This document shows positions 37,603-40,941 of a stretch of DNA of 64,000 bases, piece after piece. Numbering within the stretch: the stretch's first letter is position 1; every line of letters begins with the position of its first letter. Origin of the DNA: Aerosakkonema funiforme BLCC-F2. GTDB taxonomy: Bacteria; Cyanobacteriota; Cyanobacteriia; Cyanobacteriales; Aerosakkonemataceae. The position numbers and the translations under genes were made by a program. Location of the stretch: assembly GCF_041929185.1 (NCBI RefSeq), contig NZ_JBHFNO010000043.1. One strand, given 5' to 3'. The notes beneath the pieces are model-generated. The model was not told where the DNA came from. It was given only the letters and a program-made list of their open reading frames with translations, and searched no databases.

Positions 37603-37635
37603 TAATTAGCAAGCTGGTACTCTCCCAACATTACT

Positions 37636-37706
37636 CACTCTCCATTCTGCACCAAAACTTTTAGCCAAAAGCGATCGCACCTTACCCAAAATAAGTGCGA
37701 TCGCTC
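37636..37706. repeat. Dispersed HIP1-bounded intergenic repeat, copy A
   Basis: CTCTCCATTCTGCACCAAAACTTTTAGCCAAAAGCGATCGCACCTTACCCAAAATAAGTGCGATCGC. Confidence 0.8.
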
Positions 37707-37723
37707 TTTAGCCTATTTCCCAA

Positions 37724-38023
37724 TTACTTAGAAGCTAATTCCAGTTCTTCAGTATAAAACTCCCCAATTTCCAATGGAAAGCTTAAACTATTTCCCTCGC
37801 GACTTTCTGAAACTAGCTGATAAATTTTCACTCCTAAATTCTGATTAAATCTAAAGAGATTCAGAAAATATTCATCTCCCCGAATTCCTTGAATTTGGCG
37901 ATCGGCAACAGTAGCAGTTTCCACATTTAAAGTAAATTCATGTTGCTTTGTACCAATTAACACTACAACATTAAAACCAAGGTTTATTGATGTAGGTTCG
38001 ATAGAAATAACTTGTGTTTTCAT
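37724..38023 (-). CDS. Small hypothetical protein (99 aa) translationally coupled downstream of the papain-like peptidase gene; candidate immunity/partner protein
   Basis: 4-nt overlap (ATGA) with 38020..38496; no recognisable domain. Confidence 0.5.
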   Translation of the reverse strand: MKTQVISIEPTSINLGFNVVVLIGTKQHEFTLNVETATVADRQIQGIRGDEYFLNLFRFNQNLGVKIYQLVSESREGNSLSFPLEIGEFYTEELELASK

Positions 38024-38496
38024 TGTTCTATCCAGTAAACAGCTTGTCCATTCCAGTATTCTAAAAAATCACCTTTTCTCATCCTGTACTTAGTCGCATC
38101 CCAAGGGTCACGAATCAGAACTGTATCATTGTAAATGCCATCCACGACTACCATGTGCCCTATTCTAGCTCCTGCTCCCCAAAGTACGGCAATCCAAGAC
38201 CCTGTGGCGTTCAAAGCATCGAAAGATGAAGCACTGACAAAGTTACCTAACCATTTTCCCCCATCATCTGGGTTGAGTTGATTAAGTGCATCGGCTAACA
38301 ATTCTGGCCAAGTGGGTGCTGTTGCTAGTTTCTCAATATCAGCTTGACTAATATTATTAATGCCTCGACTTTTCAAGATCATTTCACCGCAGGCAGAACC
38401 GCAAGAGCGAATACTTTGCTGTTGTACAATGGTGGGATCGGTAACTTCATCAATAACCCGCCAATTACCACCCGCACCAGAAAGTTTAGGGTGCAT
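38020..38496 (-). CDS. Standalone papain-fold cysteine peptidase domain protein (Peptidase_C39-like / C39_2-type)
   Basis: Catalytic-Cys context SIRSCGSACGEMIL at the helix N-terminus and a downstream GHMVVVDG His context. At 158 aa there is room for the protease domain only. Confidence 0.55.
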   Translation of the reverse strand: MHPKLSGAGGNWRVIDEVTDPTIVQQQSIRSCGSACGEMILKSRGINNISQADIEKLATAPTWPELLADALNQLNPDDGGKWLGNFVSASSFDALNATGSWIAVLWGAGARIGHMVVVDGIYNDTVLIRDPWDATKYRMRKGDFLEYWNGQAVYWIEQ

Positions 38497-38605
38497 TTTG
38501 TTTAACTTCCGATTTCACTTCCTTTTTTACCTAAAATGTTTAAATCTCTTTTTATTATAGGATAACACAGCCTCAAAGGAAATGTGTATTCCTACGGTAC
38601 GTTAA

Positions 38606-38722
38606 GCGATCGCACTTTTTCCACTCTCTCTCCATTCTGCACCAAAACTTTTAGAAACAGGCGAATGCCTACGGCAGGCTACGCCAACGCACCTTACCCA
38701 ACATAAGTGCGTTCACGAAGTG
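38606..38722. repeat. Dispersed HIP1-bounded intergenic repeat, copy B (with a 33-nt insertion carrying the palindrome ATGCCTACGGCAGGCTA)
   Basis: GCGATCGCACTTTTTCCACTCTCTCTCCATTCTGCACCAAAACTTTTAG-[insert]-CACCTTACCCAACATAAGTGCG. Confidence 0.75.
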
Positions 38723-38760
38723 TGCCGTTAGGCGTATCGCTCTTATCCAATTTCACTTCA

Positions 38761-38925
38761 CCGCAGCTTCTCTAAATTCACGCAGACGTTTTTCATACTT
38801 CTGCGCGAACGCCTCTCCCATCTCACAAAGTTCTTTAGCCTTCTGTTCGGTAACTTTCGCAAGTTCAAGCATGGAAGCTAGCTTTGCCTGTTGCGCTTCA
38901 GTCATCGATGGTTCAGTCATCATAA
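38761..38925 (-). CDS. Small helical protein (55 aa) coupled to the upstream 115-aa gene by an ATGATGA overlap
   Basis: Translation MMTEPSMTEAQQAKLASMLELAKVTEQKAKELCEMGEAFAQKYEKRLREFREAAVK. It is below the ORF-track cutoff and was found by manual translation. Confidence 0.35.
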
Positions 38926-39264
38926 ATTCTCCAAATCAGTTTTTAGCCTACTTGCATTTATTTTAACTTCCAGCACCACACCCAGCATTGTTGCCAACTC
39001 TTCTCCAGCATCCTGAATTATCTCTGTAGGTACATTAACTGGCAAAAGTGGCTCAACAGTAAGCTGTATTCTTCGTCTATAGCTTTCAACGAATATTAAT
39101 ATGTTACCAAGAGAAGCAAAGAATTGAATCAACACGACATTATTTGGAAAGCGAGACAACAAACTCCTAGTTAAGTTCAGTCCCTCTGTAGCTTCTCTTT
39201 CAGTCCAATTTAGTTCCTGGTTTAGTTGGTCAATCAAAACTGCTATTTCTGGAGGAATGGCCAT
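38920..39264 (-). CDS. Hypothetical protein (~115 aa) in repeat-delimited cassette
   Basis: Start taken at MAIPPEIAVLIDQLNQELNW. The 41 codons further upstream in the ORF-track ORF run into repeat copy C and are unlikely to be coding. Confidence 0.45.
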   Translation of the reverse strand: MAIPPEIAVLIDQLNQELNWTEREATEGLNLTRSLLSRFPNNVVLIQFFASLGNILIFVESYRRRIQLTVEPLLPVNVPTEIIQDAGEELATMLGVVLEVKINASRLKTDLENL

Positions 39265-39354
39265 ATTTATAAATTTAGCCTTGAGAGCAAATCTTTGAAG
39301 TATTATCAGCATATCATCTGATGAAATAGAAAGCAAAAAAACCGCTATCTTACA

Positions 39355-39448
39355 GTTGCGATCGCACTTCTTCCACACCCTCTCCATTCTGCACCAAAAC
39401 TTTTAGTCAAAAGCGATCGCACCTTACCCAAAATATGTGCGAGCGCTC
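39355..39448. repeat. Dispersed HIP1-bounded intergenic repeat, copy C
   Basis: GCGATCGCACTTCTTCCACACCCTCTCCATTCTGCACCAAAACTTTTAGTCAAAAGCGATCGCACCTTACCCAAAATATGTGCGAGCGC. Confidence 0.8.
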
Positions 39449-39613
39449 CCCTATCTCATCAAATCGTGCTATTATTAATCATATCTAATGCGATCGCTTG
39501 CAAAAGCAGCCCTCCCCAGGTTCAACCAGGAAACGAAAATACACAGTTTCAGCCTCTTAGTGTAAGATCTGAGTAAACCAAACTATAAAAACGTTTGAAC
39601 GCTTGGAGAAGAT

Positions 39614-39850
39614 ATGCCACCAAACGCAACAGATCAAAAACAAGAGTTAGAAATATCCGATATTCGCCAAAAGTATCCCCAACAATGGGTGACAGTGGAC
39701 ATCACCCAGCGAGATAAATATGGCTTGCCTTTTGTGGGAAGAGTTATACTACACTCCAAAACCAAAAAAGATATAGTTGACCAAATCGAAAATACGGAAG
39801 GAGATCTCTACGTTTTCTACAGCGGTGCTATTGACGATGATGTTGACTAG
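39614..39850 (+). CDS. Small hypothetical protein (78 aa)
   Basis: ORF with a plausible start; no domain recognised. Confidence 0.4.
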   Translation: MPPNATDQKQELEISDIRQKYPQQWVTVDITQRDKYGLPFVGRVILHSKTKKDIVDQIENTEGDLYVFYSGAIDDDVD

Positions 39851-40019
39851 AGTAAAATATAACCACCCAGAATAAACAGGTAAGCCGTGTCTGTAATTGT
39901 AGTTGAGCAGGATTTTAGGGGAAAGCCAACTTTTGATAAATTGCAACTGTAAGCGATCGCACTCCCATTTCCTCAAATAATGCTACTATTTAATCATAAT
40001 CAATACCGAATAAAAATAA

Positions 40020-40339
40020 TGGAAAACATTGCTATCTCTGACTTATCGAACCAAAAATCATTAGAAACCTCATTTTCAGAACTAACTGAAAGATGGCGCA
40101 AGGAAACGCAGATGATGTCCTCAATTACCAAAAAATCAAAACATCCTGCTTACCAAGAAATTATCAGCATGGGAACACCAGTTTTACCCCTAATTCTACG
40201 CGAACTGAAGCGCCAGCCAGATCATTGGTTTTGGGCGCTAGTTGCTATCAGCGGAGAAAACCCTGTAAGTTCAGAATCCAACTTCGATCGCGCTGTTGAA
40301 ACTTGGTTGGAATGGGGAAAAAATCGCGGATTAATTTAG
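40020..40339 (+). CDS. Small hypothetical protein (~106 aa) translationally coupled (TAGATG) to the downstream 148-aa gene
   Basis: Start taken at MENIAISDL. Stop and downstream start abut. Confidence 0.45.
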
Positions 40340-40786
40340 ATGGAGTCAATTCAATTAGAACTTTATTTTCCGAATTTAAGAAAGACCGGATATAGGATAG
40401 AAAGCCAAAAAACACCCCGATATAATTGTATTGCTTGGGCTGCTGGTGTAGACGATCGCCCTTGGTGGCCGATCGATTTACCGCCTTATTATTGGCCAGA
40501 AGAACCACGAGTTGAATCCTTAGCCGCTTTCATCAGTGTTTTTCAAAGTTTAGGATATCAAGTTTGCGACAATAGCGATCGCGAAATTGGTTTTGAGAAA
40601 GTAGCAATTTATATAGATGAAGATGAAATCCCAACACATATTGCAAGGCAACTTCCTTCTGGTGAATGGACAAGTAAATGTGGTGATTTGGAAGACATCA
40701 TTCACACTTTAGAAGGACTAGAGGGATCTTATCCAGCTTATGGAAGAGTAGCTTGTGTGATGAAAAGACCAATATCGGGAAGCTAG
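40340..40786 (+). CDS. Hypothetical protein with a possible papain-like Cys motif (PRYNCIAWAAG)
   Basis: A Cys followed by an aromatic/Ala pair (NCIAWA) at the predicted N-terminus of a helix, plus His/Asp candidates downstream. Assignment is tentative. Confidence 0.4.
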   Translation: MESIQLELYFPNLRKTGYRIESQKTPRYNCIAWAAGVDDRPWWPIDLPPYYWPEEPRVESLAAFISVFQSLGYQVCDNSDREIGFEKVAIYIDEDEIPTHIARQLPSGEWTSKCGDLEDIIHTLEGLEGSYPAYGRVACVMKRPISGS

Positions 40787-40830
40787 CATTTATCCGAATA
40801 TATGGAAATTAATTAAGCTAGGGGGAAAAC

Positions 40831-40895
40831 GGGATCGCACTTTCTCCACTCCCTCTCCATTATGCACCAAAACTTTTAGCCAAAAGCGATCGCTG
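40831..40895. repeat. Dispersed HIP1-bounded intergenic repeat, copy D (3' truncated)
   Basis: GGGATCGCACTTTCTCCACTCCCTCTCCATTATGCACCAAAACTTTTAGCCAAAAGCGATCGC. Confidence 0.75.
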
Positions 40896-40941
40896 CCTAA
40901 ATCTTAAGAGCGTGCATAAAATTCAAGCTGTTATTCTAGTT

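Follow-up and report, generated by a model that had tools for sequence, protein, structure and literature searches.

Between a PEP-CTERM protein gene and cobN (37.6-40.9 kb) in a 64,000-nucleotide stretch of the genome of the cyanobacterium Aerosakkonema funiforme BLCC-F2 (contig NZ_JBHFNO010000043.1; “the window” below means this whole stretch), four units of small genes, here called cassettes, are separated by copies of a dispersed repeat built around HIP1, the abundant cyanobacterial palindrome GCGATCGCAC. On balance, we take the locus to be a hypervariable toxin/antidote array, in which the repeats provide portable homology for the exchange of cassettes by general recombination and their hairpin punctuates transcription. 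Full-text searches of the literature found no description of either the array or the repeat.

The repeat and its distribution

The repeat is recognizable by a 27-nt core, CTCTCCATTCTGCACCAAAACTTTTAG, with four matches of at most one mismatch in the window (37638, 38628, 39380, and 40853), all on the + strand and none elsewhere in the 64 kb (chance expectation 0). Limits of the repeat unit were set by alignment and by a hidden Markov model (HMM) made from the copies, nhmmer giving the intervals 37612-37710, 38594-38745, 39354-39450, and 40820-40928. A full unit of about 95-130 nt consists of a 5' HIP1 arm (GCGATCGCAC-TTTCTCC), the core, a middle HIP1, a 14-nt loop, and a 3' HIP1: three HIP1 sites in all, the last two of which pair as a 10-13-bp hairpin (34 nt). 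The core, in its conserved extent of 32-38 nt (ACTCCCTCTCCATTCTGCACCAAAACTTTTAG), is non-palindromic; visible in its sequence is a TCTCCA-N5-TCTCCA direct repeat with an 11-nt period, and on folding it shows no secondary structure on either strand and no dyad symmetry. On both sides it is bracketed by 10-nt direct repeats of GCGATCGCAC, which would explain junctions reduced to HIP1, such as that at 39953. The array has 2.7 HIP1 sites per kb, compared with 0.69 per kb in the rest of the window. Within the repeat, the best-conserved segment is the one present in every copy, including two shortened terminal copies.

Several known kinds of element were considered for the core. The whole window at Rfam gathering thresholds, and positions 36300-41100 at E-value thresholds, gave nothing credible; a generic promoter/terminator scan found no match to a promoter consensus in the core (site counts were at background); a tRNA-derived att site was rejected after a tRNA/tmRNA scan found none; and open reading frames (ORFs) starting from an ATG within the reverse-complemented core (MEREWRKCDR...) were judged spurious because the sequence downstream is not conserved between copies.

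Related loci were gathered from the genomic contexts of orthologs of a neighboring nucleoside triphosphatase (NTPase) gene. Six proved to be syntenic array loci: the window, Argonema antarcticum (L001), a JGI metagenome (L002/L003), a Leptolyngbyaceae metagenome-assembled genome (L005), A. galeatum (L006), and a further JGI metagenome locus (L015). Their shared layout is a major vault protein (MVP) gene or another gene, then Uma2, the NTPase gene, a divergent gene, and the array of small genes. A search with the repeat HMM (nhmmer) located 19 core-bearing copies at these loci. All of them are inside an array and on the strand that does not encode the NTPase, irrespective of how the cassette genes are oriented; outside the arrays, about 145 kb of sequence from the same loci contains none. 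An exact scan for the core in 185,579 species-representative genomes returned a single match, in the homologous array of A. antarcticum, adjoining an NTPase ortholog 80% identical to that of the window. Two exact core-pattern scans of JGI metagenome contigs gave no matches (L002 evidently lies outside that collection), nor did a scan of IMG/VR or BLASTN searches of PLSDB plasmids and INPHARED phages. Paralogous NTPase loci (L007-L010) have no core copy, L008 having one weak match (E 4.5e-4) at the equivalent position, and repeats are also missing from the NTPase ortholog locus of UBA11369/71 (L011-L014; 81% identical). A functional link between NTPase and array was rejected on the strength of these repeat-free loci: their association is synteny within one clade, not a functional requirement.

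The copies in the window (A-D; Table 1) differ according to their place in the array. Internal copies have an arm-core-arm structure, with the last HIP1 of the copy C hairpin degenerate (GCGAGCGC). At the NTPase end, copy A has no 5' HIP1 arm, its place being taken by sequence from downstream of the PEP-CTERM gene; at the cobN end, copy D has no hairpin, and divergence starts right after HIP1. The resulting layout, flank-core-arm ... arm-core-flank, is the one expected from repeated recombination of circular cassettes into one core. Between cassettes 3 and 4 is a further junction, of HIP1 alone; its homolog in A. antarcticum (L001, 752-827) keeps the core, and by this comparison the junction in the window is a remnant of the repeat.

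Copy B is further distinguished by two mutually complementary 24-nt inserts (38665-38688 and 38712-38735), one per hairpin arm and each inside a HIP1 site, so that both HIP1 sites of the hairpin are split and the hairpin is lengthened. For the second, the insertion point is exact, with nucleotides 3 and 4 of HIP1 on either side of it (GCG, 24 nt, ATCGC; 38709-38740), and the first is its mirror image. Such inserts, 21-24-nt hairpin modules with a consensus of about ATGCCTACGGCAGGCTACGC, are present in most copies of the relatives (many in L001, L002, L005, and L006) and so are not specific to copy B; others in the window are at 38585-38605 and, palindrome-bearing and with one mismatch, on the - strand at 33530-33549. 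In size and in position within HIP1 they are like SDR5, a module of about 21 nt between HIP1 nucleotides 3 and 4 (Elhai et al., 2008, as described in PMC4390886), and it is to this published description that they are likened. SDRs have been reported only in Nostocaceae, not outside (PMC5861425), whereas the host here is an Oscillatoriales-type genome, and the inserts decorate a repeat rather than being the repeat itself.

These results bear on an earlier note on this DNA, made from its letters alone, which had claimed four copies of one element between gene units and, more generally, an array of cassettes punctuated by a conserved element. Both claims hold, with the HIP1-only junction as an addition. 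The terminal inverted repeats it described, GCGATCGCAC...GTGCGATCGC, do exist, but form the 3' hairpin only and are not the ends of the whole element. It had seen in copy B one extra insert of 33 nt, which is instead two of about 24 nt, generic and SDR5-like; the reverse complement that it placed near 33540 is real (the - strand module described above). Its gene units are as claimed, with one of the coupled pairs now measured at 114 + 56 rather than 115 + 55 aa. It had also proposed checking whether the repeat is specific to the locus and whether the locus varies among relatives: the repeat is restricted to arrays and, as described below, the arrays vary, the reverse of the outcome that it had set against its own idea.

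Cassette turnover and contents

All-against-all BLASTN and protein clustering show cassette families recurring in differing order, number, and combination in each of the six genomes. Among them are a C39 + 99-aa pair, 78-aa, 56-aa, and 106-aa families, and fragments of a 148-aa DUF7689 gene, as well as PemK pairs, 59 + 95-aa pairs, and DUF433 modules. The ends of homology blocks coincide with repeats or HIP1 sites, for example at window positions 39358, 39950/39954, 37704, 38606, and 40893. Over all arrays, 28% of block ends are within 12 nt of a HIP1 site, as against 7% of random positions (nominal p 3e-11, the endpoints not being independent).

Junctions were mapped at near-nucleotide resolution in one case, copy A. 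Its hairpin side, together with the end of the 99-aa gene, matches A. galeatum L006 at 6945-7021, while its core side, together with the end of the PEP-CTERM gene, matches the same locus at 8662-8746. In A. galeatum, those two repeats enclose 1.6 kb containing three cassettes (95 aa, 78 aa, and a PemK pair). Copy A of the window is, to judge from these alignments, a recombinant of two A. galeatum copies, the switch point falling between the middle HIP1 and the first bases of the core.

What the cassettes encode is clearest for cassette 1. Its 158-aa protein matches Pfam Peptidase_C39 (E 4e-10) and, at E ~1e-34 and about 50% identity, PDB entries 8ssk, 8ssm, and 12aj (StbD-CT/CdiA-CT) and 9l5u (the type VI secretion system, or T6SS, effector Cpe1). 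The alignment to these toxin domains spans residues 4-154 and includes GACGEM, IGH, and DPW motifs, which would supply a Cys-His-Asp catalytic triad; where the crystallized StbD chains have Ala, this protein has Cys. It also starts from an ATG of its own that coincides with the peptidase domain boundary. By homology, then, it is a stand-alone Cpe1/StbD-CT-like C39 cysteine peptidase, and a putative toxin. Cpe1 and StbD-CT themselves, both C39/papain-like peptidases, cut GyrB and ParE at a Gly-Gly motif, and a small immunity protein neutralizes them (10.1101/2024.12.30.630690, 10.64898/2026.05.07.723447). The 99-aa partner has no sequence match in PDB; the same two-gene module, C39 plus a protein of about 99 aa, is found in A. 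galeatum (L006) and in L016-L021, and its position, paired with the peptidase in six other contexts, suggests a putative immunity protein.

Stand-alone Cpe1/StbD-CT homologs of 158-170 aa, without a delivery domain, occur in several filamentous cyanobacteria, coupled in every context examined to a partner of 99-107 aa. The repeat is absent beside the Cpe1-like modules of these other cyanobacteria (L016-L021).

The second gene of cassette 4 belongs to DUF7689, a large family (3,180 cluster representatives at E up to 0.001). Four residues, Cys30, His100, Asp119, and His122, do not vary across an alignment of 51 sequences, and the AlphaFold model built from that alignment (pLDDT 95.8) confidently predicts a papain-like/NlpC-P60-like fold; a single-sequence prediction was unusable (pLDDT 35), and a profile search of PDB sequences gave chance matches only. 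The gene follows a 106-aa gene, an arrangement like that of a toxin-immunity pair. Parts of cassette 2 have homologs at other array positions in L002 (families F12 and F7). Neither cassette 2 nor cassette 3 has a family match in Pfam, PADLOC, or NCBIfam, and PADLOC and NCBIfam returned nothing informative for the cassette proteins.

Toxin-like folds are thus recognizable in the window in cassettes 1 and 4 only. Arrays of the relatives contain PemK, HicA, DUF433/DUF5615, and DUF6887/6888 modules (L001, L002, L005, and L006), translationally coupled gene pairs of the sort that make up a type II toxin-antitoxin island, and it is these, with the cassette identities in the window, that lead us to read the array as an assemblage of modules of two types, toxin-antitoxin and orphan toxin-immunity, its cassettes having the look of toxin/antidote pairs. 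The orphan toxin/immunity character suggested in the earlier note is supported for at least two cassettes, the Cpe1/StbD-CT-type protein with its partner and the papain-fold DUF7689 protein with its partner.

Putative transcription signals accompany the repeat on two sides. As RNA on the - strand, the copy A hairpin has a folding energy of -28.7 kcal/mol (z -6.9), with UUUUGG after it; the extended hairpin of copy B reaches -26 kcal/mol as DNA and -45.9 kcal/mol as RNA. For the terminal genes checked on the same strand in the six loci, the distance from stop codon to hairpin start is about 1-70 nt (mostly less than 30 nt), making the hairpin a plausible intrinsic terminator or insulator of the cassette. 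On its opposite side the repeat adjoins, in four of six aligned instances, a promoter/operator-like module; the six (from the window, L001, L002, and L006) share an invariant 15-column block, TGTGTTATCCTATAA. In the relatives this module precedes PemK toxin-antitoxin cassettes, and in the window it precedes the unrelated Cpe1-like cassette, with the junction of the fusion about 30 nt before the ATG.

Possible explanations for the array

Under the explanation that we favor, the array occupies a chromosomal locus conserved in the Aerosakkonema/Argonema clade, and the repeat is the junction element between self-contained cassettes. Being direct repeats, its copies would offer portable homology through which the array loses, duplicates, reorders, and gains cassettes, whether by unequal crossing-over, Campbell-type integration of excised circles, or replacement following natural transformation. 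The three HIP1 sites per unit might plausibly stimulate exchange, since HIP1 has been reported to raise recombination and transformation efficiency in a Chi-like manner: integration increased 7- to over 100-fold with HIP1 in the homology arms in Synechococcus PCC 7002 (10.1101/2024.09.10.611283). HIP1 has also been proposed as a signal for DNA uptake or horizontal transfer. The hairpin, on the strand of most cassette genes, after the stop codon and before TTTT, would probably act as a terminator or insulator of the cassette. What the comparisons show is the structure of the repeat, its uniform orientation and confinement to the array, the exchange of cassettes at repeat or HIP1 boundaries in six genomes, the toxin-like character of the cassettes, and the lack of a recombinase nearby; for the array repeats themselves, we infer RecA dependence, HIP1 stimulation, and terminator activity.

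Several observations weigh against this explanation. Core identity is 88% within a genome and 83% between genomes; frequent recombination with gene conversion could be expected to homogenize the copies more than this near-equality indicates. Perfect identity between copies extends over just 27-45 nt, near the lower limit for RecA-dependent exchange. Many junctions in the relatives have HIP1 alone or nothing recognizable, so the repeat is not required at every junction, and no recognizable empty core site was found when one was looked for at the 3' end of the L011 PEP-CTERM ortholog. Figures for genome-wide copy number come from exact-pattern scans and the roughly 145 kb of sampled flanks. The hairpin was not called by a simple terminator scan, its T-tract being only four T long. 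Finally, the explanation supplies no reason for the conservation of a non-palindromic core.

The main rival, which we consider unlikely, is that the array is an analog of an integron, with the core as an att-like site, a recombinase that is encoded elsewhere or is a HIP1-cutting machinery, and arm-core-arm circles that reinsert at any core. The strict co-orientation of the 19 copies would fit such a site, and the layout of the terminal copies is exactly what att x att insertion predicts. Conservation is highest in the segment that every copy has, and the TCTCCA direct repeat is inside it; block ends are enriched at HIP1 sites; SDR5-like insertion between HIP1 nucleotides 3 and 4 implies some HIP1-cutting activity (PMC4390886); and similar core identity within and between genomes is easier to reconcile with purifying selection on a site than with gene conversion. 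The enzyme, however, is not apparent. Integrases, resolvases, and transposases were absent from the results of a Pfam scan that covered every window ORF of at least 180 aa along with all the cassette ORFs, and there is no recombinase in the 10-kb flanks of L002 and L005. A gene combining TetR_N and Phage_integrase domains near the Argonema and L015 arrays was considered as the array recombinase and rejected: it is conserved throughout cyanobacteria (about 70% identity across Fischerella, Tolypothrix, Scytonema, and Trichocoleus) and is not array-specific. The core, moreover, is without the dyad symmetry usual for core sites of tyrosine and serine recombinases, the single mapped crossover can be placed only within an interval of about 10-20 nt, and several junctions have no core. 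It is with considerable doubt that we raise the idea of core and HIP1 together as the site of an unrecognized cyanobacterial cassette-capture system with no integrase of its own, whose enzyme would be encoded elsewhere or be HIP1-directed, the same as that responsible for SDR5-like insertion.

It is decidedly improbable that the repeat only punctuates expression, as a shared terminator or insulator and possibly as a small RNA or regulator site, co-opted between toxin-antidote modules that are each expressed on their own, with turnover caused by unrelated processes that break intergenic DNA. The strong hairpin with its run of U directly past stop codons is what such a role would call for, four arrays' worth of copies have a conserved promoter/operator module physically attached, and the neighboring HTH-NB-ARC protein could in principle bind DNA. 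This leaves unexplained, however, why copy A joins exactly two repeats and why the terminal copies have their arm/core layout. The conserved core lies outside the hairpin and matches neither a promoter consensus nor an Rfam family; the orientation of the repeat is constant even where cassettes are inverted, and in the window this puts the hairpin away from the 3' end of two cassettes out of four; and the ortholog locus L011-L014 and the paralog NTPase loci do without repeats. Of the shared promoter/terminator suggested in the earlier note, the terminator half is plausible, the hairpin being terminator-like on the opposite strand directly after stop codons, while the core has no promoter consensus.

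Still less probable is a relic of tandem duplication, in which one ancestral toxin-antitoxin cassette was amplified and later gene replacements left the intergenic segment repeated. Paralogous cassettes do occur within arrays (three PemK pairs in L002, and two 59 + 95-aa pairs each in L001 and L002), and the PemK-type promoter module that accompanies the repeat precedes an unrelated toxin gene in the window. The repeat, however, accompanies cassettes that are unrelated and point either way, their order from genome to genome is shuffled and not nested, and the gene replacements would still need a mechanism, which general recombination between repeats supplies. Weakest of all is a MITE (miniature inverted-repeat transposable element, also suggested in the earlier note) or other dispersed non-autonomous transposable element that has hit intergenic sites repeatedly: HIP1 palindromes at the ends superficially resemble terminal inverted repeats, and activity of small mobile modules in the genome is evident from the SDR5-like mini-insertions, but we reject this reading on account of the co-orientation of all 19 copies at one type of locus and their restriction to the array (none in the other ~60 kb of the window or the ~145 kb of flanks, one exact match among the genomes scanned and that at the same locus, none in plasmid, phage, or viral sets), and flank alignments show neither apparent target-site duplications nor an inverted repeat across the whole element.

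The choice between the two leading explanations matters for what the locus would teach. If exchange is by homologous recombination only, it is a clear example of repeat-mediated turnover of a defense/addiction island and introduces no new principle; if it is site-specific, HIP1 would acquire a definite function, as the point at which mobile gene cassettes are cut and joined.

Neighboring genes and known systems

Table 1. Coordinates of the array, its repeats, and its neighbors in the window.
Feature	Position	Strand	Description
MVP homolog, 886 aa	30665-33325	-	Vault repeats and MVP shoulder domain; like eukaryotic major vault protein
Uma2-family gene	33575-34126	-	Putative restriction endonuclease-like; with the next Uma2 gene flanks the NTPase gene 3' end
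Uma2-family gene	34274-34882	+	Putative restriction endonuclease-like
HTH_VMAP-M9 + NB-ARC STAND NTPase, 465 aa	34967..36364	-	Conserved anchor gene of the syntenic locus
PEP-CTERM protein gene, 335 aa	36595..37602	+	Divergent from NTPase gene, bounds array; orthologs at same position in L006, L015
Repeat copy A	37612..37710	+	NTPase-side terminal copy; core 37633-37670, HIP1 hairpin 37671-37704
Cassette 1	37724..38496	-	Translationally coupled 158-aa peptidase (38020-38496) + 99-aa partner (37724-38023), ATGA overlap
Promoter/operator-like module	38526..38605	-	CTGTGTTATCCTATAAT; between copy B and cassette 1; from BLASTN blocks
Repeat copy B	38594..38745	+	Full unit; 5' HIP1 38606-38613, core 38616-38664, hairpin
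Cassette 2	38753..39264	-	Coupled 114-aa (38920-39264) + 56-aa (38753-38923) genes, ATGA overlap
Repeat copy C	39354..39450	+	5' HIP1 39358-39365, core, middle HIP1 39413-39420, hairpin
Cassette 3	39614..39850	+	78-aa gene, family F6; also in L002 and L006 arrays
HIP1-only junction	39953..39975	+	GCGATCGCACTCCCATTTCC/GCGATCGCACTCCC; between cassettes 3 and 4, core missing
Cassette 4	40019..40786	+	106-aa gene (40019-40339) abutting 148-aa DUF7689 gene (40340-40786)
Repeat copy D	40827..40893	+	cobN-side terminal copy; 5' arm GGGATCGC 40831-40838, core, middle HIP1 40886-40893
cobN	40942..45147	-	Distal array boundary in this genome only

The surroundings of the array have features of their own. 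The MVP gene is syntenic with Uma2 and the NTPase gene in the window, L002, and L005; the Argonema and L015 loci have the TetR_N + Phage_integrase gene in its place. Uma2 genes recur in the arrays and flanks of the relatives. The HTH_VMAP-M9 + NB-ARC NTPase has a 100% identical counterpart among A. funiforme proteins and belongs to a family with 2,339 matches at E<=1e-30 among the scored candidates. At every locus examined except the truncated contigs L004 and L014, it is paired with a divergent, highly variable gene for a small or secreted protein starting about 150-245 bp upstream (surveyed in the window, 34967-36594, and in L002, L005-L009, L011, and L015); the leader between the two genes (36365-36594) has 85-90% DNA conservation among close orthologs. 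Internal repeats are found in both genes that bound the array. In the PEP-CTERM gene, 48-nt tandem repeats (37275-37460, + strand) encode acidic SDD/EDDF motifs, and the L011 ortholog has the same type of repeat. CobN (- strand) contains PTKYQ[ED] heptapeptide and IPNPKSQ repeats (about 42560-42810, 41538-41568, and 42393-42423), encoded by tandem short DNA repeats (GGGATTT-type heptamers) and apparently inserted into a conserved enzyme.

Among known systems, the array is most readily compared with sedentary chromosomal integrons such as the Vibrio superintegron. Both have chromosomal cassettes of one or two genes, many of them toxin-antitoxin modules, that vary between relatives; one co-oriented repeat of about 100 nt per cassette, at the same end; and an anchor gene that reads away from the array. 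The differences are equally plain. There is no IntI or other recombinase beside the array and no attI/Pc, the divergent anchor being an HTH-NB-ARC NTPase; attC is a bulged R''-L''/L'-R' hairpin over the whole site, whereas here palindromic sequence is confined to the 34-nt HIP1 hairpin; a promoter-like module belongs to cassette 1 at least; and the element is built from cyanobacterial HIP1 sites. The “integron-like” label of the earlier note is therefore apt for the co-oriented sites and variable content and misleading in the other respects (no integrase in the 64 kb, no attC-like bulged palindrome, a promoter-like module belonging to at least one cassette): the locus resembles an integron in organization and is not one.

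The rAID-1 loci of Bacteroidales are arrays of orphan immunity and toxin-related genes with repetitive intergenic sequences, described as “reminiscent of integrons”, and a XerD-family recombinase at their head (Ross et al., bioRxiv 10.1101/471110). Here, too, repetitive intergenic sequences stand between orphan toxin/immunity genes, in an array structure that suggests active gene acquisition. The heading XerD-family recombinase has no counterpart, and where rAID-1 consists mostly of immunity genes alone, the units here are toxin + partner pairs. Orphan cdiA-CT/cdiI and rhs-CT/rhsI arrays, as Poole and colleagues in 2011 and Koskiniemi and colleagues in 2014 are said to have described them, are tandem pairs separated by a homologous segment that permits modules to be swapped or amplified. 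They are alike in having repeats that allow homologous exchange, and the toxin domain of cassette 1 is homologous to the CdiA-CT-like domain of StbD. In those arrays, however, the repeat is a cdiA or rhs coding fragment and the array follows a full-length delivery gene, whereas here the repeat is non-coding and the toxins are stand-alone ORFs that have start codons of their own; the window has no cdiA, rhs, or T6SS genes.

Within cyanobacteria, Microcystis aeruginosa PCC 7806 has a ParE/ParD-like toxin-antitoxin module between two 152-bp direct repeats (PMC7935541). It shares with the array the bracketing of a cyanobacterial toxin-antitoxin module by identical direct repeats that contain short inverted repeats. 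It differs in being a single module, with an unrelated repeat sequence and no reported comparative evidence of turnover. The pdif sites of Acinetobacter, 28-bp XerC/XerD sites of alternating inverted orientation, are plasmid-borne and bound small modules, often toxin-antitoxin, that move between replicons. There, as here, modules are situated at short conserved sites and move without an adjacent dedicated recombinase; the repeats of the array are chromosomal and direct, run to about 100 nt, and do not resemble dif.

Set against these systems, the cassette proteins extend the Cpe1/StbD-CT findings, in that homologs appear to exist as stand-alone cytoplasmic modules in cyanobacteria, and they place DUF7689 (about 3,200 cluster representatives, with a predicted papain-like fold) in a toxin-like two-gene cassette. 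Few systems are known outside integrons and Bacteroidales rAID that keep an ordered, fast-exchanging toxin/antidote library at one chromosomal site. The array presents the same organization in filamentous cyanobacteria with no adjacent recombinase, built on a palindrome whose function has been disputed for 30 years, and is a natural, compact test of clustered HIP1 sites as recombination hot spots or cut sites.

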